Origin: a virus
Taxonomy: Duplodnaviria > Heunggongvirae > Uroviricota > Caudoviricetes
Strand: one strand, 5' to 3'
DNA length: 29,133 bases
IMG/VR virus record: IMGVR_UViG_2648501318_000010
Span: 1-29,133 of that record
Shown: positions 5,774-16,794 of the stretch, one piece after another
Position numbering within the stretch: the stretch's first letter is position 1
How the letters are laid out: every line of letters begins with the position of its first letter
Position numbers and translations under genes: made by a program
The notes under the pieces: model-generated
The model's input: the letters and a program-made list of their open reading frames with translations, nothing else
Database searches by the model: none
What the model was told of the DNA's origin: nothing

Positions 5774-8700
5774 ATGAACAAGCTATCTATGGGTGTGTTT
5801 CGCTGTTCAAGTGTCAGCGAAATATTGAAATACATTAGGGTAATAACATCTCACCGAGCGCCGATTAAATACGGCGTGGAAAAGGTGGAAGGCAAAAGCT
5901 ATGACCGACTGCGCCGGGAGGCGAATCAGAAGGCGATAGATTTGCTTAATTCGCTGGTGGACGGCGCGACACTGACAGATGAACAGCGCCAGATCCTGGC
6001 CGGGTACACTGGTGAAGGCGGCATTGGCGGGTCCGTCTCCGAATATTACACACCAAAGCCTATCGCTGAAGGTGTCTGGGAGATCATGAAGCTCTACGGC
6101 GCGGACGTAGGTAACACTCTGGAACCATCGGCGGGAACCGGCGTTTTTAATGAGACAAAACCGGTTGGTACGGTGATGACCGCGACTGAGATCAGCAGTG
6201 TTTCCGGTCGTATAAACCAGTTGTTACACCCGGAAGACAGCGTACAGATTTCCCCGTTCGAACAGCTGGCTATAAACACGCCTAACGATTCATTCGACCA
6301 TGTTGTGGGTAACGTTCCGTTCGGCGGTCGTGATAACACACGCAACATCGATAAGCCTTACGCAGAAGAAACGGACATGGGGTCTTACTTCATGCTCCGC
6401 ATGCTGGACAAGATAAAACCTGGCGGATTCATGTGTGTGATTGTGCCGCCGTCCATTGTTTCAGGTTCAAACATGAAGCGGTTACGCCTGCGCTTATCCC
6501 GTAAAGCTGAATTTCTTGGCGCTCACCGCTTGCCTACCGGTACTTTTGACGCAAACGGGACCAGTACAGTCGTTGATGTGGTGCTGATGCGCAAACATCC
6601 GGCAGAGATGGCTGAGAAAATCCCCCTGGTGGATGAAAGCACTCTCGAATCGGCAAATGTGCTTTGGCCAACGTTTATTTCTGGCAAGTGGTTTGAAAAG
6701 GACGGCCGCCGGTTTGTTCATGGCACCCAGGAAAAGGGCTTCCAGGGGCGTATTGAGGTTCGTGCCGACGGTCAGATTGATAACCAGGCTCTTAAAGCGA
6801 AGCTGATTCATCGTTTCGAAAGCCGTATCGACTGGTCTTTGCTCGATATGGCTGAACCGTCACCGACCGCAGACGTTGTTGGTGAAGGGGAAATGCGCCT
6901 GATTAATGGCGTATGGCAAAAATATGCTGGTGGTCGCTGGATTGAAGCTGATGCCGGGAAGGAACTTAAGATCGATGCTGCCAGTTATGGCGCGGATAGC
7001 TGGGAGGCTCTTCAGCGTAACCTGACTACAACAGAAGGCCGTCTCGGCATGACATTTACCCAGATGGCAAATGTCCGCGATAAGTACACCACATCAATCA
7101 GCGACGATATGGTGCAGCTGGTGGACTGGATTAACAGCCAGCCTGAAAAATACCGTGAACGCTTGTATCGCGGGGCGATGATTGGCCGGATGTTAATTGA
7201 ATATCAGGACATGAAGGCCGCCGGGCATAGTGCTGAACAAATCGAACAGCAGCGCCTTTCTCTGGTATCCCGTTTGCAGGCAGAGATTGACCGTTTTGGT
7301 AACCCCGGTCGCGGTCCGATAGCGAAATTGTCGGGGAGCGGTGCGCGCGCCTGGTTTGCTTTCCGTGGTGCGATTAAGCTGGATGGCACTATTTCTGACG
7401 AGCTGACAGGAAAGCTGGTTACGCATGATTCCAGCGCCAGTTATGACTCCACCAGCTATCAGGACACCCTGCGTTATCTCTATAGCGATCTTACCCGCGA
7501 TCCAATCCAGCTCGATGATTTCCGCTTTGCGTTTACCGGCGAACTGCCAGCCAGTGATGAAGAGTTGCTTAATTTATTGGCCAGCACCCCTGGTATTGCG
7601 GTTTCACCGTATGGCGGGATTGTTCCGTTTGCCCGCGCCACCAGCGGCGACATTAACGAGATAGTGGCTCCAAAACAGGAATTCCTTGCCACACTCCCCG
7701 ACGGTCCAGTAAAGAACAACGTCCTTAATCAGCTGGCAGCGATCGAAGAGAAGCGCATCAAGACGCCAGCAGAGAATATCCGCTTTAAGCTCAATAGCCG
7801 TTGGTTCGACCGCTCCGTCATTCTGGAGTTTTTGCAGGAAAACGGCTATCCGGATCTGCGCTATGTGCAGTCAGTGCAGCTGGAAGGCGACGAAATGGTT
7901 TCTGACACCTATCACGGTGGTGATGGTCTGTTCGTCGGGCACCGATACGGTGTCGTCCAGCGCAAGGATAAAGAAACAGGCGAGATCCGCTACGAGTGGG
8001 ACCGTAAATCAGGTGAAAACGCGACCGGGTTCCCGGCACAGCTGGAAAAGTATCTCAATGGTGCGCGTATCGGTGGCAAAGATAGCGCGACGGCGAACGG
8101 CTACCGCGAGCAGATGGCACTGCTTGAGGACCAGTTCAATAAGTGGATCAAGACGCACGATCGCTACGATGAGCTGGTTGCCAAATACAACGATGTGTTC
8201 AATAGCAATATCCCGTATGAACACTCTGGCGATCCGCTTGGGTTGAAGGGATTAAGCGGTAAGCGCCAGCCATTTGATTACCAGAATAGCGAGGTGCGCC
8301 GACTGTCCGAAGATGGGCGCGGCATCCTGGGCTTCGGCACCGGGCTGGGTAAAACCACGACCGCGCTGGCGCTTGAGGCGTTCAACTATGAGAACGGTCG
8401 CTCTACCCGTACTGCGTATGTAGTGCCTAAATCAGTGCTGGAAAATTGGTATTACGAAGCAAAAGAATTCCTGAGTGAAGAGGCATTCAGTAACTACTTG
8501 TTCGTCGGTCTTGATGTGCTGATGGATGGCGATCAGATTCGCCAGGTGCCGGTGCTCAATGAGAACGGTAAACCTGTTCTTGGTACTGATGGCACTCCAG
8601 TTATGCGCGATGCTCTTAAGCTGGCAGATGAAGCCACTATCACGGCGCGGATGAACGCGATCCCGCACTCAAACTACCGTGCAGTCGTGTTTACCAAAGA

Positions 8701-11700
8701 ACAATACGCCCGCATTCCGCTACGTGATGACACCGTAGATGAGCATGCACAAGACATGCTTTATGACTTCGTTGCCGCCGGGCGCGTAGCCAGCGCAATG
8801 GATTCCGACTCCCATCGTAAAGAGGCGGCGCGTCGCCGGGTATTGTCGGAGTATTCAGATACCGGTACCGAAAAAGCAGAGAAATATCCGTACTTTGAGG
8901 ATATGGGCTTCGATAGTGTGATCGCCGACGAAGGCCACAACTACCGCAATAGCTATAAAAATGGTCGCGAAGCGTCACAACTGGCCTATCTGCCCACCAG
9001 CGCGGTGGCGCAATCGGCGCGGGATATGGCAATCAAAAACGCGTACCTGATGAAAAAGAATGGCGGGCGCGGGCCGGTTCTCCTGACTGCAACGCCAGTC
9101 GTTAACACCCCGATCGATGCATACAACATGCTTTCTCATGTTCTGCCGAAGGAATACTGGCAGAAGATGGGGATCTACGGTCCTGATGACTTCGTTAAAT
9201 TCTTCGGCAAGACCAGGCTGGAAACGGTACAGAAAATCAGCGGTGAAGTTGAAGAAAAAATGGCGCTGGTGGGCTTTGAAAACCTTGATGCGCTGCGCGG
9301 TATATTCCATCGCTGGGTAACGCTTAAAACGGCGGAAGACGTTAAGGATACCGTGGAGATCCCGGAGCTGGACGAACACCAGCAGGATGCACCACTTACT
9401 GAAGAACAACTGGCGGCGTATGAAGAATTGCGTCAGCAGGCGGAAGCGGCGGCCAAAGCCAACAATGGCGTAACGACCTCGGTCAATGAAGACGGCGTGA
9501 TTGAGCACGAGAAAGCCCGTCCGATCTTCTCAATAATCAGGGATATGGACCGCGTATGTACTGACATGGACCTGTACTATCGCCGGATCACCTATCGTTT
9601 CCTGCCGGAGTACGCCGATGCGGTGCAGCAGCTGGCGGACAGTTTGCCTAAACAAGCCACCAGCGAAGACGACGACAGTGATGATTCAATCACGCAGCAA
9701 TCGCAATACTCCCTGATAGATAAGGGCGAGTTTATTCAGTTGCAGGTTCCGGAAGCGTTCGAGCAGGAAGTGAATAAGCGCCTGGCCAGGTTTGGCATTG
9801 ACGAACAGACCGTAACTCACCCCGTTACACCCAAATACGCGAAGCTGATCGCCACGCTGAAGGAGTTTTTCCCGGAAGGTAAGCAAATCATCTTCACGGA
9901 CGAAAAAACGCAGCACCAGAAGCTCAAGCGCATTATCTGCAATGCTCTTAACCTTGAACCTTCAAAGGTGGGGATCCTGAATGCTCAGACGGTTGCCGAG
10001 GCAGGTAAAACCGGTAAGAAACTGAAAGCGGTTAAACCGCCGAAAGAGTTACCGGATGAACCAACAGATGCACAGATAGCGAAATACAACGAGCAAATGG
10101 CTCTGTATGACGCCTATATCGCGCAGCAAAATGAAATGTCGTTGGGCGGTCTGGAAAAGATTGCAGCAGACTTCCAGGAGGGCCGGACTCCGATCATCAT
10201 CTGCAACAAAAAGGCAGAGGTGGGTATCAACCTGCATCGAGGAACGACGGATATCCACCACCTGACGTTGCCGTGGACTCCAGCCAGTATCGCACAACGT
10301 AACGGTCGCGGTGCCCGAGTTGGCTCCAACCGTGCAAGCGTTCGCGTTCACTACTACTGCGGCAAGGGTTCTTTCGATGAATACCGACTGAAGACGCTGA
10401 AGCGTAAAGCAGGCTGGATATCCGATATCCTCCGTTCAGATAAGTCAGAAATGGAGAACGCCGACGCCAACGATATGATCGAAATGCAGATGTATACCGC
10501 TAAGGATGATGGCGAACGTCTGGCAATGATGCAGGTTCAAATGGATAAGGCGAAAGCCGCGCAACGCGCTCGCCAGAAAGAACAGGCTACTATCGACCTT
10601 CAGAACTACATCAAGGCGCAGCACGCAGCTGGCGAGGATGTGGAGGTACTTACCGCTGAATTAGAGCGAAGCAAAGCGGAACTTGAAAAGACCACCGCCG
10701 AGGTAGCTAAATTCAAACAGGCGGTAATGGCCAAAGCAGCTGATAACGCAGACTGGAAAGCCCGCTGGGGTAGCGTCCATCACACAGACCGTACGTTGTT
10801 AGCACAGTATCGCGCGTCGTTGAAAAGCGCCATTCAGCGCAAGGCTAATATCTCTCAGGCCATCTCCCGCTATGAGAAATTATTGAACCGTACTCAGAAG
10901 GCCGCGACGGATATCAAACGCCTGCGCCCGCTGGTGGAGGATGCAATAAATAAAGGCATTCTGGATGTTGATCCTGATCTGGTTAACCATGCGAATGAGT
11001 TCCTTGTTATCGGCGATCGCTCATGGCGTGTAGGCCAATACTACGATTGTGCCGGTGATATCGTTCGCATTAAGTCGCTGGACTTCGACAGCCAGCGCGC
11101 AGACGTGGAGATCATCTTTATCTTCAAAGGCACCAAATCGGGTAACTGGGATGTGAAGACGCTGGATAAACAGGTGGATGTAACTCCCGATGAAGATGCT
11201 GTTATGCAGAAAATCAGTGGTGGCGTCTCCATCGCCGGGATTAACGACATCATTTCCTGTGACGATTTCTACCGTTTCCAGCAGCGCGGCATGATCAAAA
11301 TCACTGACTCGTACAGCGTTCAGACTACAGAGTCAGGCTATAGCATTGATTTTGTTGGTACCTATACGGCCCCACTGAAGCATGCGGTTTACCCGGATCG
11401 CCGTGACGGCGCGCTGAAGTCGTCAATTGCAAAATGGGTGCTTGGTATGATGTCGGAAGGGAATAACCGCCAGATCCGTTCGGCAGAAACATTCCTGGTT
11501 GAATTGTTTGGCTCCAATTATGGCGATGTAATCGCGTCATACGGAGATACGCTATCCCCTGAAGCAATTCAGGAGAAAATAGCGGATGCGATCGCAAAAA
11601 TGCCGGAGAAAACAAGCCAGGGGGCTACTCGTAACGGGGATTCTGAACTTGAGGTCACCAATGCCATTTTCGGTACCCATGAGTTCCGGGCGTCAGATTA

Positions 11701-12541
11701 TGAGATCACCACAGCACAGTTTGGCACCATTGGCATTTACAGCAATAAAGCCGAGATCAAGCAGGCAATGGACGCAGCAAGCGCGCGCATCGCAGCAGAA
11801 CGGGAAGCCAATCTGAATCATGCAGTCGCCGCACTGACTCAATCGTGGGTAACAGCAATCAGGGAGGCCGCCACCACAGGGAAAATCACACCTGCAATTG
11901 CGGATGTCGTAAACGACGGCTCTAAATTTATGGATGCCTATCAAATGGATGCGGTGCAGTTGCCATCAGCCTATGGCCAACTCAGCTATCGCATGACCTA
12001 CAACCTGGTATCAATGTTTTCCGACCTTGCCATCCTTGGGCTGGTGGATCTTAACGAGGTTACGCCGGAATTGCTCAGCATGCGCAAGAATCATGTGGAG
12101 ATATTGCAGAGAATTAACACGGTTCTTGCCGGGCGCACCGATGAAGAGAAACAGGCCGACGCTGATCGGATAAACCTGGCCCTTGGCAACATCACGGAGG
12201 AAGAAATTGCCGCCAGAAACGAGAAACAAGAAGAGTTATCATCAATACAGGGTGATGCCACCAGCATAGCTCAGTCTCTTGGTCTGAATTATCGCGTATC
12301 CACCGCCGACCTGAAGATGATGTACGCACCAAAATTCGCCGCTGGCGAGGTATTTGGGCTTCAGGAAGCCTCAGGCATGAAAGGCGTTCTTTTCCGTGCG
12401 AAAGACGCAATCAAGGCGAAATTCGGCGCTCGCTGGCTGCCAGCGAAGGCGAAGAACAGCGATTTCCCGGGTAACTGGTGGATTATCGAGACAAAACACA
12501 ACGTGGCGGACGTTCTGGCCGTCATCCAACAATACGCATAA
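5774..12541 (+). CDS. darB: DarB-type virion defence-against-restriction protein: N6-adenine methyltransferase domain fused to an SF2 DExH helicase domain
   Basis: 2255 aa, matching the size I recall for P1 DarB. AdoMet motif I (LEPSAGTGVF) and motif IV (VGNVPFGG) near the N-terminus; helicase Walker A (GFGTGLGKTT), DEGH box (VIADEGHNY), motif III (LLTATPV) and motif VI (QRNGRGARVG) in the middle of the protein. Confidence 0.85.
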   Translation: MNKLSMGVFRCSSVSEILKYIRVITSHRAPIKYGVEKVEGKSYDRLRREANQKAIDLLNSLVDGATLTDEQRQILAGYTGEGGIGGSVSEYYTPKPIAEGVWEIMKLYGADVGNTLEPSAGTGVFNETKPVGTVMTATEISSVSGRINQLLHPEDSVQISPFEQLAINTPNDSFDHVVGNVPFGGRDNTRNIDKPYAEETDMGSYFMLRMLDKIKPGGFMCVIVPPSIVSGSNMKRLRLRLSRKAEFLGAHRLPTGTFDANGTSTVVDVVLMRKHPAEMAEKIPLVDESTLESANVLWPTFISGKWFEKDGRRFVHGTQEKGFQGRIEVRADGQIDNQALKAKLIHRFESRIDWSLLDMAEPSPTADVVGEGEMRLINGVWQKYAGGRWIEADAGKELKIDAASYGADSWEALQRNLTTTEGRLGMTFTQMANVRDKYTTSISDDMVQLVDWINSQPEKYRERLYRGAMIGRMLIEYQDMKAAGHSAEQIEQQRLSLVSRLQAEIDRFGNPGRGPIAKLSGSGARAWFAFRGAIKLDGTISDELTGKLVTHDSSASYDSTSYQDTLRYLYSDLTRDPIQLDDFRFAFTGELPASDEELLNLLASTPGIAVSPYGGIVPFARATSGDINEIVAPKQEFLATLPDGPVKNNVLNQLAAIEEKRIKTPAENIRFKLNSRWFDRSVILEFLQENGYPDLRYVQSVQLEGDEMVSDTYHGGDGLFVGHRYGVVQRKDKETGEIRYEWDRKSGENATGFPAQLEKYLNGARIGGKDSATANGYREQMALLEDQFNKWIKTHDRYDELVAKYNDVFNSNIPYEHSGDPLGLKGLSGKRQPFDYQNSEVRRLSEDGRGILGFGTGLGKTTTALALEAFNYENGRSTRTAYVVPKSVLENWYYEAKEFLSEEAFSNYLFVGLDVLMDGDQIRQVPVLNENGKPVLGTDGTPVMRDALKLADEATITARMNAIPHSNYRAVVFTKEQYARIPLRDDTVDEHAQDMLYDFVAAGRVASAMDSDSHRKEAARRRVLSEYSDTGTEKAEKYPYFEDMGFDSVIADEGHNYRNSYKNGREASQLAYLPTSAVAQSARDMAIKNAYLMKKNGGRGPVLLTATPVVNTPIDAYNMLSHVLPKEYWQKMGIYGPDDFVKFFGKTRLETVQKISGEVEEKMALVGFENLDALRGIFHRWVTLKTAEDVKDTVEIPELDEHQQDAPLTEEQLAAYEELRQQAEAAAKANNGVTTSVNEDGVIEHEKARPIFSIIRDMDRVCTDMDLYYRRITYRFLPEYADAVQQLADSLPKQATSEDDDSDDSITQQSQYSLIDKGEFIQLQVPEAFEQEVNKRLARFGIDEQTVTHPVTPKYAKLIATLKEFFPEGKQIIFTDEKTQHQKLKRIICNALNLEPSKVGILNAQTVAEAGKTGKKLKAVKPPKELPDEPTDAQIAKYNEQMALYDAYIAQQNEMSLGGLEKIAADFQEGRTPIIICNKKAEVGINLHRGTTDIHHLTLPWTPASIAQRNGRGARVGSNRASVRVHYYCGKGSFDEYRLKTLKRKAGWISDILRSDKSEMENADANDMIEMQMYTAKDDGERLAMMQVQMDKAKAAQRARQKEQATIDLQNYIKAQHAAGEDVEVLTAELERSKAELEKTTAEVAKFKQAVMAKAADNADWKARWGSVHHTDRTLLAQYRASLKSAIQRKANISQAISRYEKLLNRTQKAATDIKRLRPLVEDAINKGILDVDPDLVNHANEFLVIGDRSWRVGQYYDCAGDIVRIKSLDFDSQRADVEIIFIFKGTKSGNWDVKTLDKQVDVTPDEDAVMQKISGGVSIAGINDIISCDDFYRFQQRGMIKITDSYSVQTTESGYSIDFVGTYTAPLKHAVYPDRRDGALKSSIAKWVLGMMSEGNNRQIRSAETFLVELFGSNYGDVIASYGDTLSPEAIQEKIADAIAKMPEKTSQGATRNGDSELEVTNAIFGTHEFRASDYEITTAQFGTIGIYSNKAEIKQAMDAASARIAAEREANLNHAVAALTQSWVTAIREAATTGKITPAIADVVNDGSKFMDAYQMDAVQLPSAYGQLSYRMTYNLVSMFSDLAILGLVDLNEVTPELLSMRKNHVEILQRINTVLAGRTDEEKQADADRINLALGNITEEEIAARNEKQEELSSIQGDATSIAQSLGLNYRVSTADLKMMYAPKFAAGEVFGLQEASGMKGVLFRAKDAIKAKFGARWLPAKAKNSDFPGNWWIIETKHNVADVLAVIQQYA

Positions 12542-12574: not shown

Positions 12575-13015
12575 ATGGCCACACTATCTGATACAATAAA
12601 ACCGAATAAAACATATCTTGAGGCGGTACTCCGTACAGCGTTGTTAGGAAAGACAGAAGACGAATACGTTGATTTCTTCCTGTCAGGGCTACGCGGGCGA
12701 TTACTGAAAAATCCCCGCCTGTACCGCAGCTATGGTCCATACTGGCCGGAAATTAAAAAATTATTACTGGAGCGCGGTTATGGTAATTTCGGTCGTCTCG
12801 TTGACCGTGACGTTCGCAAAATTTACCGTTATGACCGCCCGGCGCTGACGCTCATAGCCGCGACGCTCTACAGCCAGGAGCGTTTTGATAATGGTCAGAT
12901 ATACTCAGCCTGGCATTTACTGCCAGTACCTGAAGAGGTTGACGACCAGGACTATGAGTTTGAGTCTTACGATTTGGAAGTTGAAGCCTTAGCACAGGCT
13001 GGAGAGAAAACTTGA
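12575..13015 (+). CDS. ulx: Hypothetical protein at the position of P1 ulx (upstream of lxc)
   Basis: 146 aa ORF immediately after darB whose stop overlaps the TTG start of the next ORF (TTGA). Assignment by synteny only. Confidence 0.45.
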   Translation: MATLSDTIKPNKTYLEAVLRTALLGKTEDEYVDFFLSGLRGRLLKNPRLYRSYGPYWPEIKKLLLERGYGNFGRLVDRDVRKIYRYDRPALTLIAATLYSQERFDNGQIYSAWHLLPVPEEVDDQDYEFESYDLEVEALAQAGEKT

Positions 13016-13260
13016 AAAAGCGATACTACACAGTAAAGCATGGGACGCTACGAGCATTACAAGAGTTTGCTGATAAGCATAACGTTGAGGTGCGCAGGGA
13101 GGGGGGAAGTAAAGCTCTGCGCATGTACCGTCCGGACGGGAAATGGCGTACGGTCGTCGATTTCAAAACTAACAGCGTTCCCCAGGGCGTCCGCGACCGG
13201 GCATTCGAAGAATGGGAGCAGATCATCATAGATAACGCATTGCTTCTGAATGCTGATTGA
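13012..13260 (+). CDS. lxc: Lxc/Bof-like modulator of C1 repressor action
   Basis: 82 aa ORF with a TTG start; P1 bof/lxc is recalled as an 82-codon gene with a TTG initiation codon, located next to darB/ulx. Confidence 0.55.
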   Translation: MKKRYYTVKHGTLRALQEFADKHNVEVRREGGSKALRMYRPDGKWRTVVDFKTNSVPQGVRDRAFEEWEQIIIDNALLLNAD

Positions 13261-13290
13261 CTCATTAACATTTAGGAATCATAGAATTAC

Positions 13291-13315
13291 AGGAAGAGGA
13301 TTAGCACCTCTTCCT
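13291..13315. terminator. Hairpin between convergent lxc and the YaaW-like gene (possible bidirectional terminator)
   Basis: 9-bp stem AGGAAGAGG/CCTCTTCCT with an 8-nt loop; flanking T content is modest. Confidence 0.3.
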
Positions 13316-13335
13316 TGATGGATGGAGTTATAATA

Positions 13336-14088
13336 TCACAAGGTAATATCGCTGTCTTTAATATTATTATTGACTTTCGCCCTTAGTACAGCAACTTGAA
13401 TAACAGCAGGAATTGTTACTCGATAAGCAGTTCCTCCCACATCTACAATGGTCCATGCGGCTGTTATAGCCCAACCAATTGGGCCTGTTAAAATAGATAA
13501 TGCTTTTACGAGTATTTGATTACCTGCGAGTGTTAAACCGCGTCCAATTAAAATTTTTAGTAAAAGATTCGCAAATTTAAGAGTTACCTGATAAGATCTG
13601 AAACCGCCGGCCCTGAAAATATATTGGAAGGCAGATAGAACTGCCTCAGGAGTAAATCTTGTAACTTCATCCAATCCAAGTTCCATGGCAAAAACTTTTA
13701 TATCTTCGGATGACATGTTATCTAGAGAGTCGCTGAGAATTTTTAATAGAAGATTTTGTTCAATAACCTCTATTCGGCTCTTGGCATTGAAATTAACCTT
13801 TAGCTTATTGCATACATCAATGAGAATTTCTCTGTAGCAGACCCCTTTACCACCACGCAAGAGAGTTGCTATGGTATTTCCACCATAACATTGAATTTCA
13901 GCAGCAATTTCTCTCCAATATACGCTATGTCTTGGTGCAAATTCCTTATATTGTCGATTGTTAGATAACTCTTCAGTCCATCTTTTTTTGCCATCGTTAT
14001 CATAAATCAATAGGTTAACTAAATCATCAAGATCACGGTCGCTACATTTAGCTAGGAATTCAAGATCGCTGTCTTTTCTGTATGCCAT
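13336..14088 (-). CDS. YaaW-like protein (DUF3944 N-terminal region plus UPF0174-type C-terminal region), function unknown
   Basis: 250 aa with a GGAG RBS 7 nt upstream of the ATG. The N-terminal DSDLEFLAKCS motif and C-terminal GTAYRVTIPAVIQVAVLR motif resemble E. coli YaaW as I recall it. The C-terminal third is hydrophobic and the coding region is AT-rich. Confidence 0.55.
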   Translation of the reverse strand: MAYRKDSDLEFLAKCSDRDLDDLVNLLIYDNDGKKRWTEELSNNRQYKEFAPRHSVYWREIAAEIQCYGGNTIATLLRGGKGVCYREILIDVCNKLKVNFNAKSRIEVIEQNLLLKILSDSLDNMSSEDIKVFAMELGLDEVTRFTPEAVLSAFQYIFRAGGFRSYQVTLKFANLLLKILIGRGLTLAGNQILVKALSILTGPIGWAITAAWTIVDVGGTAYRVTIPAVIQVAVLRAKVNNNIKDSDITL

Positions 14089-14103
14089 ATGTACACTCCA
14101 TTT

Positions 14104-14577
14104 TTAAATCAAGTCATCTCTTAGATTTTTAGCTACAACCATATAAAATGTTGCATATTTCATAATAATATCATCAAATTCTTTGTCTAAAACACTTCCA
14201 AGTTTCCCGTCTATAAATTTCCTCATAACGTTATTCATTCCATGTGTTTTAGCAAATATATTTTTTCCGTCTATTAAATTATCATCCTCAACAGGAGAAT
14301 AAGATACACTCCATCCACATTTGATTAAGTTTTTTGCCGATTTTGTGGAAATATCAAGAAGTATGGTTGCATCAATATTAATGATTTTACAGAATTTCAT
14401 CATATTCTCTACAGAGAGAGAGGACTTACCATTTTCAATTTTTCCCCAGCCGGCACTTGTTATCCCAAGGCCAGATGCAATGTCTGATTGAGTAACACCA
14501 TGCTTCTCGCGAAAATCGCGAATATGGAAAGCCAATATAGTTAAATAGGATGTTTTCATATGGGTAATGATACTCAC
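14104..14577 (-). CDS. XRE-family helix-turn-helix protein with a C-terminal domain of unknown function
   Basis: HTH_XRE signature (GVTQSDIASGLGITSAGWGKIENGKSSLSVENMMKFCKI) in the N-terminal half. Its stop is 15 nt upstream of the YaaW-like ATG, so the two form an operon. The true start may be the ATG at 14559 (the track start at 14577 is GTG); neither has a clear SD. Confidence 0.6.
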   Translation of the reverse strand: MSIITHMKTSYLTILAFHIRDFREKHGVTQSDIASGLGITSAGWGKIENGKSSLSVENMMKFCKIINIDATILLDISTKSAKNLIKCGWSVSYSPVEDDNLIDGKNIFAKTHGMNNVMRKFIDGKLGSVLDKEFDDIIMKYATFYMVVAKNLRDDLI

Positions 14578-14677
14578 AGTTTATAAAACTTCAAGTATTT
14601 TATTGCGATAATCGTATGCGAGTCCACTTCTTGGTTGAAGATTGAACTTCGGTAATGTGCTGAAGAGACATTTAATC

Positions 14678-14699
14678 ATGCCCGGCATCAACCGGGCAT
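14678..14699 (-). terminator. Hairpin just downstream of the ant-like gene
   Basis: 8-bp stem ATGCCCGG/CCGGGCAT with a 6-nt loop, 8 nt after the ant stop; the following stretch is only moderately U-rich. Confidence 0.35.
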
Positions 14700-14706
14700 T
14701 CTTCCA

Positions 14707-15825
14707 TTATTCAGCCGCCACCGGTTTTAACAAGCCAGCATCGAGCAGTTTACGCGTCAACCACTGCTGGCCTTTACCCGTTAATTGAGGCGTCAACCGT
14801 ATCTGGTAGCCATCTTCATCATCCAGCACCACTTCTTTCACCGTGAAATATCCCGCATTGATGTACTGCTGGAACGGCACATTTTTACGTCCACCGGACG
14901 CTATCAGGATGCCGTTCTCCCGTAACCAGGCAAACAGCGCGTTTTGCTTAAGACCAACAACCTTTGCAAAATTCCCAATCAGGATCCCTTTAGCTACTGA
15001 TACCCGGTCGGCAAAATCGACCTTAGGGGCTGCGGCCACCAGCTGCTGATTTAGCTGGTGGGCTTTCTGTTCCAGAAGCTGCTTTTGTTCAGCCAGTTCG
15101 GCAGCCAGGCGCAGAGCTTCTGGAAGCGTCTGGGGGATTGCAACCGGTTGCTGTTCTTTTTGCCGGAAGTAGCTGTCTTCCAGTTTTTCAAAGAATGCCC
15201 ATGCCTGATCGGTTTCGAGCATTTTAGCGTGGCGGGCTGCGCCGCGTTCTGTCCAGAGGGTGAGTGAGCGAACATTGCGAGCAATTTTTACAGAGTAGTT
15301 TAAAGCTACTCTGTGCTTCAACTCGCGCAATGATTCTCCTTCAACTTTGAAAAAGTGCTTCCCTTCAACAAAGCGTACTTTGTTCTCATGATGATTTTGG
15401 CGAATACGGATTGTTTCTGTCCCATACCCTCTAGCAAGAGTCTCGGTTGTCACTACACGCACTCCCTGCCATTCCAGAACGGGAATTTCATCAGACTGAT
15501 TCTGAACAACCACCAGCTCCGATTCCTGAACTGAAGGTGCATAAATTTTTTCTGATTTAACGTTAGTTGCTTTCATTCTGTGTGCCTCCTTGCGTGCTTC
15601 GGCTGCGGCGGTTGCGTAATTCAGATGACCCTGTTCGAGCAGGTATTCGCGGATATCAGACAACAGGATACGGTGAACCGCGTTCTTGTCCTTTCTCCGG
15701 TAAAGTTGTTTGGTGATCATGAAGTAGTTGGCAATAACGCCTGGTATATCCCTGGTACTGATACAGGCAGTGTGCTGTTCAATTGCCTCGATCATCTCTT
15801 CACGGGTGACTAATGACGTTCTCAT
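14707..15825 (-). CDS. ant: Phage antirepressor (Ant-like; KilA-N/ORF6N-type domain plus KilAC/ANT C-terminal domain)
   Basis: 372 aa. The central region resembles the ORF6N/KilA-N DNA-binding domain and the C-terminus (FAKVVGLKQNALFAWLRENGIL...) the antirepressor KilAC domain. It is preceded by a translationally coupled small ORF and a c4-like RNA region, as in P1 immI. Confidence 0.7.
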   Translation of the reverse strand: MRTSLVTREEMIEAIEQHTACISTRDIPGVIANYFMITKQLYRRKDKNAVHRILLSDIREYLLEQGHLNYATAAAEARKEAHRMKATNVKSEKIYAPSVQESELVVVQNQSDEIPVLEWQGVRVVTTETLARGYGTETIRIRQNHHENKVRFVEGKHFFKVEGESLRELKHRVALNYSVKIARNVRSLTLWTERGAARHAKMLETDQAWAFFEKLEDSYFRQKEQQPVAIPQTLPEALRLAAELAEQKQLLEQKAHQLNQQLVAAAPKVDFADRVSVAKGILIGNFAKVVGLKQNALFAWLRENGILIASGGRKNVPFQQYINAGYFTVKEVVLDDEDGYQIRLTPQLTGKGQQWLTRKLLDAGLLKPVAAE

Positions 15826-16043
15826 AGTCCCTCCTGAACAGAAGCGTTAACAGGGAGGCACCAGTAACTGAGAGAATTGCGCGAGTCAGTAGAAAAGCGT
15901 GCGGAGAAAATGCAGGGAGCATCCGGAAGCTGAGAACGTGCCTCATCTTCTGTTGTTGCGATAACGAAGTGATAGTGACGTTTCTGGCAGGAGTAAAAGC
16001 GCCAGATAAATTCAGGGCGTGCGCAAGGATTGGCATTAACCAT
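15822..16043 (-). CDS. icd: Small icd-like ORF translationally coupled to ant
   Basis: 73 codons from the ATG at 16043, with GAGG 8 nt upstream. Its TGA stop overlaps the ant ATG (ATGA). In P1 immI a small icd ORF overlaps the ant start and is the target of c4 antisense RNA. Confidence 0.5.
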   Translation of the reverse strand: MVNANPCARPEFIWRFYSCQKRHYHFVIATTEDEARSQLPDAPCIFSARFSTDSRNSLSYWCLPVNASVQEGL

Positions 16044-16094
16044 AGTTACGGCCTCGTAAGTTGATAAAACAACCTGCGACCCGCTGCTAAACAG

Positions 16095-16200
16095 GTGGCA
16101 GGACGTGACGGGGTTAGCAGACTGGCACTTACGAAACCAGCAGGCCGAAGCCTCCCCATCACGCCCCACCATAATTCGGGCGTAACGTGGTTATACGGAC
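16095..16200 (-). ncRNA. c4: c4-like antisense repressor RNA (boundaries approximate)
   Basis: On the minus strand the segment CGGCCT-(8 nt)-CGTAAGT (plus-strand about 16127..16147) is exactly complementary to ACTTACGAGGCCG, which covers the icd-like RBS (plus-strand about 16049..16061). It sits inside a GC-rich region that can fold into stem-loops and lies downstream of the C1 operator pair. This is the a'/b'-a2/b2 arrangement described for P1 c4 RNA. Confidence 0.4.
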
Positions 16201-16344
16201 ATGAAAATACCGCAATATCGGATATCTGCGGTTGTCCGCGTAAGTATTCAGGCTGCTAAACCCGGTCGCAGAATTTGCTACGACGGCATGAATATAAGCC
16301 TGAACGGTAAGGAGATCAATAGGGCTATGCGCAATGGTAGGATA

Positions 16345-16377
16345 TTTGCTCTAATAAATCAAATTTATTAGAGCAAT
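16345..16377. promoter_or_regulatory. Overlapping inverted pair of C1-repressor operators (Op51-like)
   Basis: TTTGCTCTAATAAATCA (16345..16361) and, on the other strand, a perfect ATTGCTCTAATAAATTT (16361..16377). The pair lies upstream of the c4/icd/ant unit and about 100 bp upstream of the divergent lipoprotein gene. Confidence 0.65.
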
Positions 16378-16476: not shown

Positions 16477-16794
16477 ATGCAGATGAAACTAGGTAATTTG
16501 TTAGCCGCAGCTATCGTTTTAACGATAACTGCATGTGCCGGAAAAGCTGAAAAAGACCCGCAATATGTAGCCGCAGAGAAATGTGCAGATTTAGTTATCA
16601 CAAAATCAAAAGCTCTGGCAGAGAAAGGCATCAGTGGAAATTACGAGTTTACATCAAAACTGCGCACAACTTCGACGTCTGATGGTCCATTCACATCAAC
16701 ACAAATCAGAGGCATTCCTTATGCAACCTCTACGTTTCTTGATAACGGTAATGAGGGGAGTGCCTGGAGACAATGTATGGGGCAGCTATTGTAA
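16477..16794 (+). CDS. Small secreted lipoprotein, function unknown
   Basis: 105 aa; N-terminal signal peptide with a lipobox (LTITAC, Cys at about residue 20); no homology recognised. Confidence 0.55.
   Translation: MQMKLGNLLAAAIVLTITACAGKAEKDPQYVAAEKCADLVITKSKALAEKGISGNYEFTSKLRTTSTSDGPFTSTQIRGIPYATSTFLDNGNEGSAWRQCMGQLL

Follow-up and report, generated by a model that had tools for sequence, protein, structure and literature searches.

In the Juk anti-jumbo-phage defence of PA14, the sensor JukA recruits the pore-forming effector JukB to the phiKZ early-infection vesicle, which is marked by gp241 (bioRxiv 10.1101/2022.09.17.508391 and reviews), and JukA function is lost by changes at NS66-67, RK73-74, Y79 and E104 and in the segment 161-214 (bioRxiv 10.1101/2022.09.17.508391). 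The "jumbo phage killer" study of Li et al. (bioRxiv 10.1101/2022.09.17.508391) included tests of 17 jukA operons from other bacteria. One of these, the Escherichia entry Jo6 ("jukA;HTH-XRE", immunity Yes, JukA WP_121372120.1), pairs jukA with a gene for an XRE-family helix-turn-helix (HTH) protein, and in P. aeruginosa PAO1 it protects specifically against phiKZ-like nucleus-forming jumbo phages (bioRxiv 10.1101/2022.09.17.508391). Deletion analysis of Jo6 showed that JukA alone is sufficient and that Xre-deleted cells are viable and fully immune; tagged JukA is diffuse in uninfected cells but concentrates at the polar site of infection once cells are infected, and the infection stops at an early stage with the phage DNA left undegraded (bioRxiv 10.1101/2022.09.17.508391). 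Here we describe a pair of genes, xre and jukA, in positions 1 to 29,133 of the Caudoviricetes record IMGVR_UViG_2648501318_000010; this whole stretch of 29,133 nucleotides, referred to as the window, is P1-like phage-plasmid DNA. We consider it likely that the two genes form a Jo6-type Xre-JukA defence cassette, which occupies the slot between the lxc and mat genes as cargo.

The second gene of the pair encodes a 250-aa protein that matches the PADLOC JukA models PDLC04113 (E 3.2e-66, residues 2-242) and PDLC04111 (E 1.4e-62), and the Pfam families DUF3944 (PF13099, 51.9 bits) and PF03981 (34 bits), both of which exceed their gathering scores. On these profile matches the protein is JukA, the sensor family of the Juk defence; its YaaW-like character had been recognized in an initial annotation made from the nucleotide sequence without database searches. 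The JukA proteins of the window and of Jo6, both of 250 residues, are 73% identical over 248 aa with no gaps, and the two Xre proteins are 66% identical across all 151 residues. By homology and gene order the window pair is a Jo6-type cassette, in which an Xre with a family-specific C-terminal domain is encoded directly upstream of jukA, on the same strand and with a short spacer. The tight two-gene operon proposed initially, with a strong ribosome-binding site ahead of jukA, is thus borne out (Table 1), and the coordinates first given match two open reading frames (ORFs) exactly, with the corrections that both are on the minus strand and that xre probably starts at another codon (see below). 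The initial annotation regarded the pair as an undescribed accessory or defence module to which no function could be assigned. The guess at defence was right, given the JukA identity, but the pair belongs to a characterized family, since its second product is JukA of the Juk system and the Jo6 architecture has been tested by Li et al.; as judged by these matches it is not new as a system, and a function can be proposed from the tested homologue. What is newly added is the phage-plasmid slot, a candidate operator, an xre message that is probably leaderless, and a gap in the distribution of gp241.

Residues N71, R78, Y85 and E110 are invariant across 26 JukA homologues, and a motif GGN(T/S)-x5-R-x-G-x-Y-x-E ... 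IE is common to the window JukA and five functional JukAs that are paired with JukB. By spacing, and with a one-residue insertion, the four residues would correspond to N66, R73, Y79 and E104 of PA14 JukA (WP_003137196.1), an indirect mapping. A model of the window JukA is all-helical (predicted template-modelling score 0.71), with residues 1-160 confident and a hydrophobic, glycine-rich segment 161-218 of low confidence. The hydrophobic C-terminal third seen in the first inspection is evident in the mean Kyte-Doolittle values (0.85 for residues 161-240 vs -0.31 for 1-160), and the 19-residue hydropathy maximum of 1.56 is slightly below the usual transmembrane threshold. A sequence search of the PDB found nothing better than E 0.25, and a Foldseek search with the model gave no match at E < 1. 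Likeness to the BAX, BOK and MakE folds was weak (TM ~0.15) and was not used. The ratio of nonsynonymous to synonymous substitution (dN/dS) between the window and Jo6 is ~0.06 for jukA, a value that is only approximate because synonymous sites are saturated, and ~0.17 for the whole of xre (0.08 for the HTH part and 0.34 for the C-terminal domain); by this measure both genes are under purifying selection.

The xre frame stays open upstream to a GTG at 14577 (14104-14577, 157 aa), which was the start given initially. We rejected this codon in favor of the ATG at 14559, which is probably the true start because it is the one used by the Prokaryotic Genome Annotation Pipeline (PGAP), because all 15 Xre homologues share the N-terminus MKTS, and because the GTG lies inside the conserved promoter block described below. 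The product contains Pfam HTH_3 (E 8e-9), and its C-terminal part matches no family above the Pfam cut-off, in keeping with its first description as an XRE-type HTH joined to an uncharacterized domain. Every member of the family has the same recognition-helix region, TSAGWGK-E---S-LSVEN. An AlphaFold model (pLDDT, the predicted local distance difference test, 85.5) has a five-helix XRE domain followed by a helical C-terminal domain, and the HTH superposes on the controller proteins C.BclI, C.Esp1396I and C.AhdI of restriction-modification systems at 1.2-1.5 Å. Whole-length fold matches to DdrO, Stl and PrgX are weak (root-mean-square deviation 10-15 Å) and we treat these proteins as analogies, not as structural relatives of the whole Xre.

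These features bear on two other roles for the pair. It could be a type II toxin-antitoxin or addiction module that stabilizes the phage-plasmid, with Xre as antitoxin and autorepressor and JukA as a membrane-active toxin; the layout is similar (the small HTH gene leads, jukA follows after 15 nt, and the promoter looks autoregulated), JukA has its hydrophobic C-terminal third, the cassette adjoins ParE toxin-antitoxin pairs and resolvases in chromosomal islands, and the Xre HTH weakly matches HipB, PezA, HigA and MqsA-type antitoxin models. However, all of these matches are far below the cut-offs and involve the generic HTH alone, JukA matches no toxin family in Pfam, NCBIfam or PADLOC, a 60%-identical JukA exists in Proteus without any Xre, and deletion of Xre in the tested homologue leaves viable and fully immune cells, so that a toxin-antitoxin role is very improbable. 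Alternatively, Xre could act as an effector, with JukA signaling through its C-terminal domain to transcription, or as a switch resembling Stl of SaPI that is released by a phage protein. A 2026 review names transcriptional regulators among JukA-associated effectors, the C-terminal domain is family-specific, always accompanies JukA and is under purifying selection, and the whole-length fold matches, weak as they are, are to repressors with sensor or dimerization domains. An effector or switch role nonetheless seems doubtful to us, as Xre is dispensable for immunity in the tested homologue, there under a foreign promoter, and it is the HTH alone that superposes well.

The expression signals of the cassette are best seen by comparison of its relatives. 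A 33-nt block upstream of xre, AAACTTGCAGTTTTATAAACTGTGAGTATCAT, is nearly invariant in seven loci from six genera while its flanks are unalignable and the cassette proteins diverge to 47-66% identity; the window block agrees with the seven-locus consensus at 31 of 33 positions. We read it as a sigma-70 promoter, TTGAAG-16-TATCAT (-35 at 14594-14589, -10 at 14572-14567; the consensus -35 is TTGCAG, again with TATCAT 16 nt on), and so supports the earlier proposal that the operon has a promoter of its own. Two palindromes, AAACT-N3-AGTTT and AAACT-N3-AGTAT, overlap the promoter at 14586-14598 and 14570-14582, and the pattern AAACT-N3-AGTWT is matched without mismatch in the window at these two adjacent sites only. 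The near-invariance of a block with two palindromes therefore points to autoregulation; autorepression by Xre would be the simplest reading, with the palindromes as putative Xre operators. In six other loci a leader of 17-30 nt with a GGAGG- or GGGG-type Shine-Dalgarno sequence precedes xre. In the window copy this leader has been lost and 7 nt separate the -10 from the ATG (within 14559-14572), for which reason the xre message is probably leaderless, unless a weaker promoter-like site upstream of the block (14626-14597) is used. Matches to the P1 C1 operator (ATTGCTCTAATAAATTT) are present at eight places in the window but none is within 13200-14700, the nearest to the cassette being that at 16345-16377, ahead of c4-icd-ant. 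Control of the cassette by C1 was rejected as there is no operator nearby, and expression in a lysogen should therefore not depend on C1.

The limits of the cassette are given by homology on both sides. On the left, similarity to hundreds of P1-like plasmids ends 1-12 nt past the lxc stop codon, and on the right, similarity to the icd/ant (immI) modules of other plasmids begins at 14674, which together define the approximate insert in Table 1. The 1242 nt of the module (13336-14577) are the most AT-rich stretch of that length in the window (GC 0.354 vs 0.491 in the remainder; 3.6 standard deviations under the mean), and both the AT-richness and the horizontal acquisition argued from it in the initial annotation hold up. 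The hairpin said to set the pair apart from the ant-like gene upstream is present and marks the right-hand limit of cassette-specific DNA, but it is not a canonical intrinsic terminator; the terminator scan called none, neither this hairpin nor that between lxc and jukA.

The earlier statement that P1 carries its restriction-modification system in this slot is also correct, since on the P1 map res/mod (EcoP1) is located between mat and lxc. In the window the same interval contains the xre-jukA cassette and an immI-type module, and beyond it on the minus strand are homologues of mat, ref, c8 and cre. Elsewhere the interval holds IS1 (CP122701.1) or a PIN-domain gene (NZ_CP041922.1), and on these comparisons the lxc-mat slot is a cargo hotspot. 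Jo6 is on a 94-kb E. coli plasmid, NZ_CP085065.1, with P1-type portal, head, lytic-replication and icd genes, and lies between portal/head-processing genes and a head gene, a location unlike the lxc-mat slot that adds a second site for cargo. Judged by gene context, P1-like phage-plasmids thus carry the xre-jukA cassette in either of two places, a point that is new here. We note that in this morphogenesis region Jo6 has as neighbors (at 6841-8682 of the extracted locus) a TnpB (InsQ) gene, a HicA toxin gene and a gene for a 143-aa hypothetical protein.

Table 1. Coordinates in the window of the xre-jukA cassette, its signals and the neighboring P1-type and immI-type features.
Feature	Position	Strand	Basis and remarks
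xre-jukA cassette insert (approximate)	13272-14673		~1.4 kb; between the end of lxc-side homology and the start of icd/ant homology
Promoter/operator block, ATACTTGAAGTTTTATAAACTGTGAGTATCAT	14566-14598	-	Promoter scan and cross-genus conservation; operator role putative
xre	14104-14559	-	151-aa XRE-family HTH protein with helical family-specific C-terminal domain
Intergenic spacer xre/jukA	14089-14103	-	15 nt; GGAG ribosome-binding site 8 nt before jukA ATG
jukA	13336-14088	-	250-aa YaaW/DUF3944 protein; PADLOC JukA, Pfam, Jo6 homology
Hairpin between convergent lxc and jukA	13291-13315		Fold -14.8 kcal/mol, z -3.3; terminator-like, no U-run
Hairpin 3' of ant-like gene	14678-14699	-	8-bp perfect inverted repeat; -20.6 kcal/mol, z -4.4; no U-run
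darB	5774-12541	+	In the P1-like DNA left of lxc
ulx	12575-13015	+	In the P1-like DNA left of lxc
lxc (bof)	13012-13260	+	P1 backbone gene; left border of variable slot; matches annotated lxc of P1, P7, RCS47 and SJ46; P1 map
immI-type module	14707-16377	-	C1 operators, c4 targets, C4 RNA, icd, ant; same slot, outside the cassette
immI C1 operators	16345-16377		Perfect operator 16361-16377; 3-mismatch operator 16345-16361
c4 targets a1b1	16245-16297		Rfam c4-a1b1, 54.6 bits
C4 antisense RNA	16091-16176		Rfam C4, 70.8 bits
icd	15822-16043		PGAP annotation, Icd-like protein
ant	14707-15825		ORF6N+ANT antirepressor (Pfam ANT and ORF6N)
105-aa ORF	16477-16794	+	Between immI module and mat; N-terminus MQMKLGNLLAAAIVLTITACAGK

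The Xre family is a small one, with 16 protein clusters (90% identity) whose named sources are all Enterobacterales. Starting with one protein from each of four Xre clusters and one JukA cluster, we sampled 11 loci, in Enterobacter, Pectobacterium, Serratia, Rahnella and Klebsiella, which with Jo6 makes 12. The co-occurrence on which the initial annotation had made its proposal depend is found in all 12: Xre is followed 9-17 nt downstream by a gene for a 250-254-aa DUF3944 protein. The surroundings vary and include islands by lysS, integrases, resolvases and ParE toxin-antitoxin pairs, and six homologous cassettes are all AT-rich (GC 0.36-0.41 vs 0.46-0.53 in the flanks). The reverse linkage fails; the close JukA family has 1,412 clusters, and the 60%-identical JukA of Proteus is encoded amid housekeeping genes with no Xre partner. 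The window-type cassette is found in 7 of 592 PLSDB plasmids having the same lxc end and in 8 of 5,426 complete E. coli genomes, where it is always plasmid-borne, and the Jo6 type is found in five of these genomes. Pigs, cattle and humans in several countries have yielded isolates with copies of 99-100% identity. Deposited phage genomes have no close JukA, the best being a 34%-identical protein in an uncultured contig.

We note two further arrangements near relatives of the cassette. In the Enterobacter (L005, 3716-5049) and Pectobacterium (L007, 8168-9383) islands a second HTH gene, coding for 152-158 aa, lies 1-2 kb from the cassette and is divergent from an unannotated gene of 165-250 aa. 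Separately, a 67%-identical E. coli JukA of 254 aa (L016, 1321-5186) is encoded beside two dynamin-like GTPase genes (Dynamin_N, DLP_helical), which by this proximity could be another type of JukA partner, on a contig that ends 421 nt upstream.

A plausible scenario for the lysogen is that transcription of the cassette begins at its own sigma-70 promoter, which has no P1 C1 operator, and that Xre binds the palindromes over the -35 and -10, giving a low steady level of Xre and JukA. On infection, the conserved N-terminal helical part of JukA would recognize an early phage factor, and the hydrophobic glycine-rich C-terminal third would bring JukA to the early-infection vesicle. The prophage would thus protect both its host and itself from Chimalliviridae-type phages. 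Because no JukB effector is present, arrest would be of the still unexplained "JukA-only" mode.

Several observations weigh against a defence cassette of this type. The activity known is that of the 73%-identical homologue in a heterologous host with a Pseudomonas phage, from which activity of the window copy in E. coli is extrapolated. Of the 17 jukA operons tested, 8 conferred no immunity, including a lone jukA (bioRxiv 10.1101/2022.09.17.508391). The C-terminal third of JukA is of low confidence in the model and no solved fold matches, which is why the roles given above to the two halves are inferred. The promoter scan found 9 sites in this AT-rich stretch, a count not above chance (6.6 +/- 2.8 in shuffles), and the promoter call therefore rests on the cross-genus conservation. 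The window xre has no Shine-Dalgarno leader, and would need to be expressed either from a leaderless message or from a promoter further upstream. Lastly, tblastn with phiKZ gp241 (109 aa, from translation) finds homologues in Pseudomonas phages only (48 records), and none in enterobacterial phages.

Some of the same points would fit a JukA-family copy that has no natural anti-jumbo-phage activity, being inactive, directed to another target such as temperate phages or plasmids, or serving a P1-specific role. The negative operons, the missing enterobacterial gp241, the rarity of the module among complete E. coli genomes and the lost xre leader can all be read this way. However, the low jukA dN/dS, the retention of residues that would align with essential positions, the activity of the closest tested relative and the persistence of near-identical copies across hosts and countries argue for a working system, and we consider a copy of this kind unlikely. 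The gp241 gap can also be accommodated by a variant of the mechanism in which JukA responds not to a gp241-type protein but to some physical property conserved in early-infection vesicles, or to a different ejected factor. Sensing of this sort would fit the recognition of phiKZ by E. coli JukA even though coliphages have no detectable gp241 homologue. In the same variant the Xre C-terminal domain would be an Stl-like switch and read-through from c4-icd-ant would raise JukA on prophage induction, read-through being conceivable because the cassette is directly downstream of that C1-controlled operon. We give the variant as a whole a low probability, and we retain the autoregulated Jo6-type cassette as the preferred interpretation.

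The remainder of the slot is occupied by the immI-type module, which is complete, and a small gene. In P1, immI is between sim and kilA, i.e. not in the lxc-mat slot, and modules like that of the window are annotated beside c1 in other plasmids. The predicted 105-aa protein encoded between the module and mat has a start that resembles a lipoprotein signal peptide with a lipobox, and it has no match in Pfam or PADLOC; judging from its N-terminus, a lipoprotein acting at the surface or in exclusion is conceivable.

These comparisons extend the picture of the Juk family without changing it. If the preferred interpretation is correct, a P1-like phage-plasmid lineage has swapped type III restriction for a defence against phages that restriction cannot reach. 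The cassette is easily overlooked, as database records label jukA and xre merely "DUF3944" and "HTH regulator". Neither Xre nor the other slot genes match JukB, so the canonical combination of JukA with JukB is not found here, and a rule that demands JukB beside JukA would probably miss this Juk system; Xre-JukA cassettes are likely under-counted on phage-plasmids for this reason. The 33-nt operator-like block and the strict linkage of Xre to JukA provide handles on JukA-only regulation and on JukA sensing in the Enterobacterales.

Among described systems the closest is Jo6, which has the same gene order, a spacer of 17 nt (15 nt in the window) with GGAGTG in both, and the promoter/palindrome block in common; both cassettes are AT-rich (GC 0.35-0.36) and both are on P1-type phage-plasmids of ~94-100 kb. 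They differ in location, as described above, and in that Jo6 xre has a 14-nt leader with GGAGG that is absent from the window. PA14 JukAB shares JukA family membership, the N-terminal motifs and, by the inferred mapping, positions aligning to its loss-of-function residues, but there the partner is JukB, whereas the window jukA is partnered by xre, and PA14 JukAB acts on a gp241-marked vesicle. The mechanism of arrest also differs, because phage DNA is not degraded in JukA-only systems.

E. coli K-12 YaaW/UPF0174 (NCBIfam PRK10236) belongs to the same superfamily (DUF3944 and PF03981) and its NCBIfam model aligns over the full length. The window JukA, however, reaches 115.9 bits where the cut-off is 395, and its gene is plasmid-borne and paired with xre; identity as the chromosomal yaaW orthologue was therefore rejected, and JukA represents a paralogous clade. 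We note that NCBIfam NF007593 (PRK10236), a full-length match to YaaW-type proteins, is described as "acidic protein MsyB", which looks like a library mislabel. Finally, the controller (C) proteins of restriction-modification systems and the Xre autoregulators of mobile defence cassettes resemble the window Xre in HTH fold, in the promoter-proximal position of the gene and in paired palindromes over the promoter, here with a putative operator role. The window Xre differs from C proteins in its extra 70-aa helical C-terminal domain and in having a sensor protein, and not a nuclease, as its gene partner.

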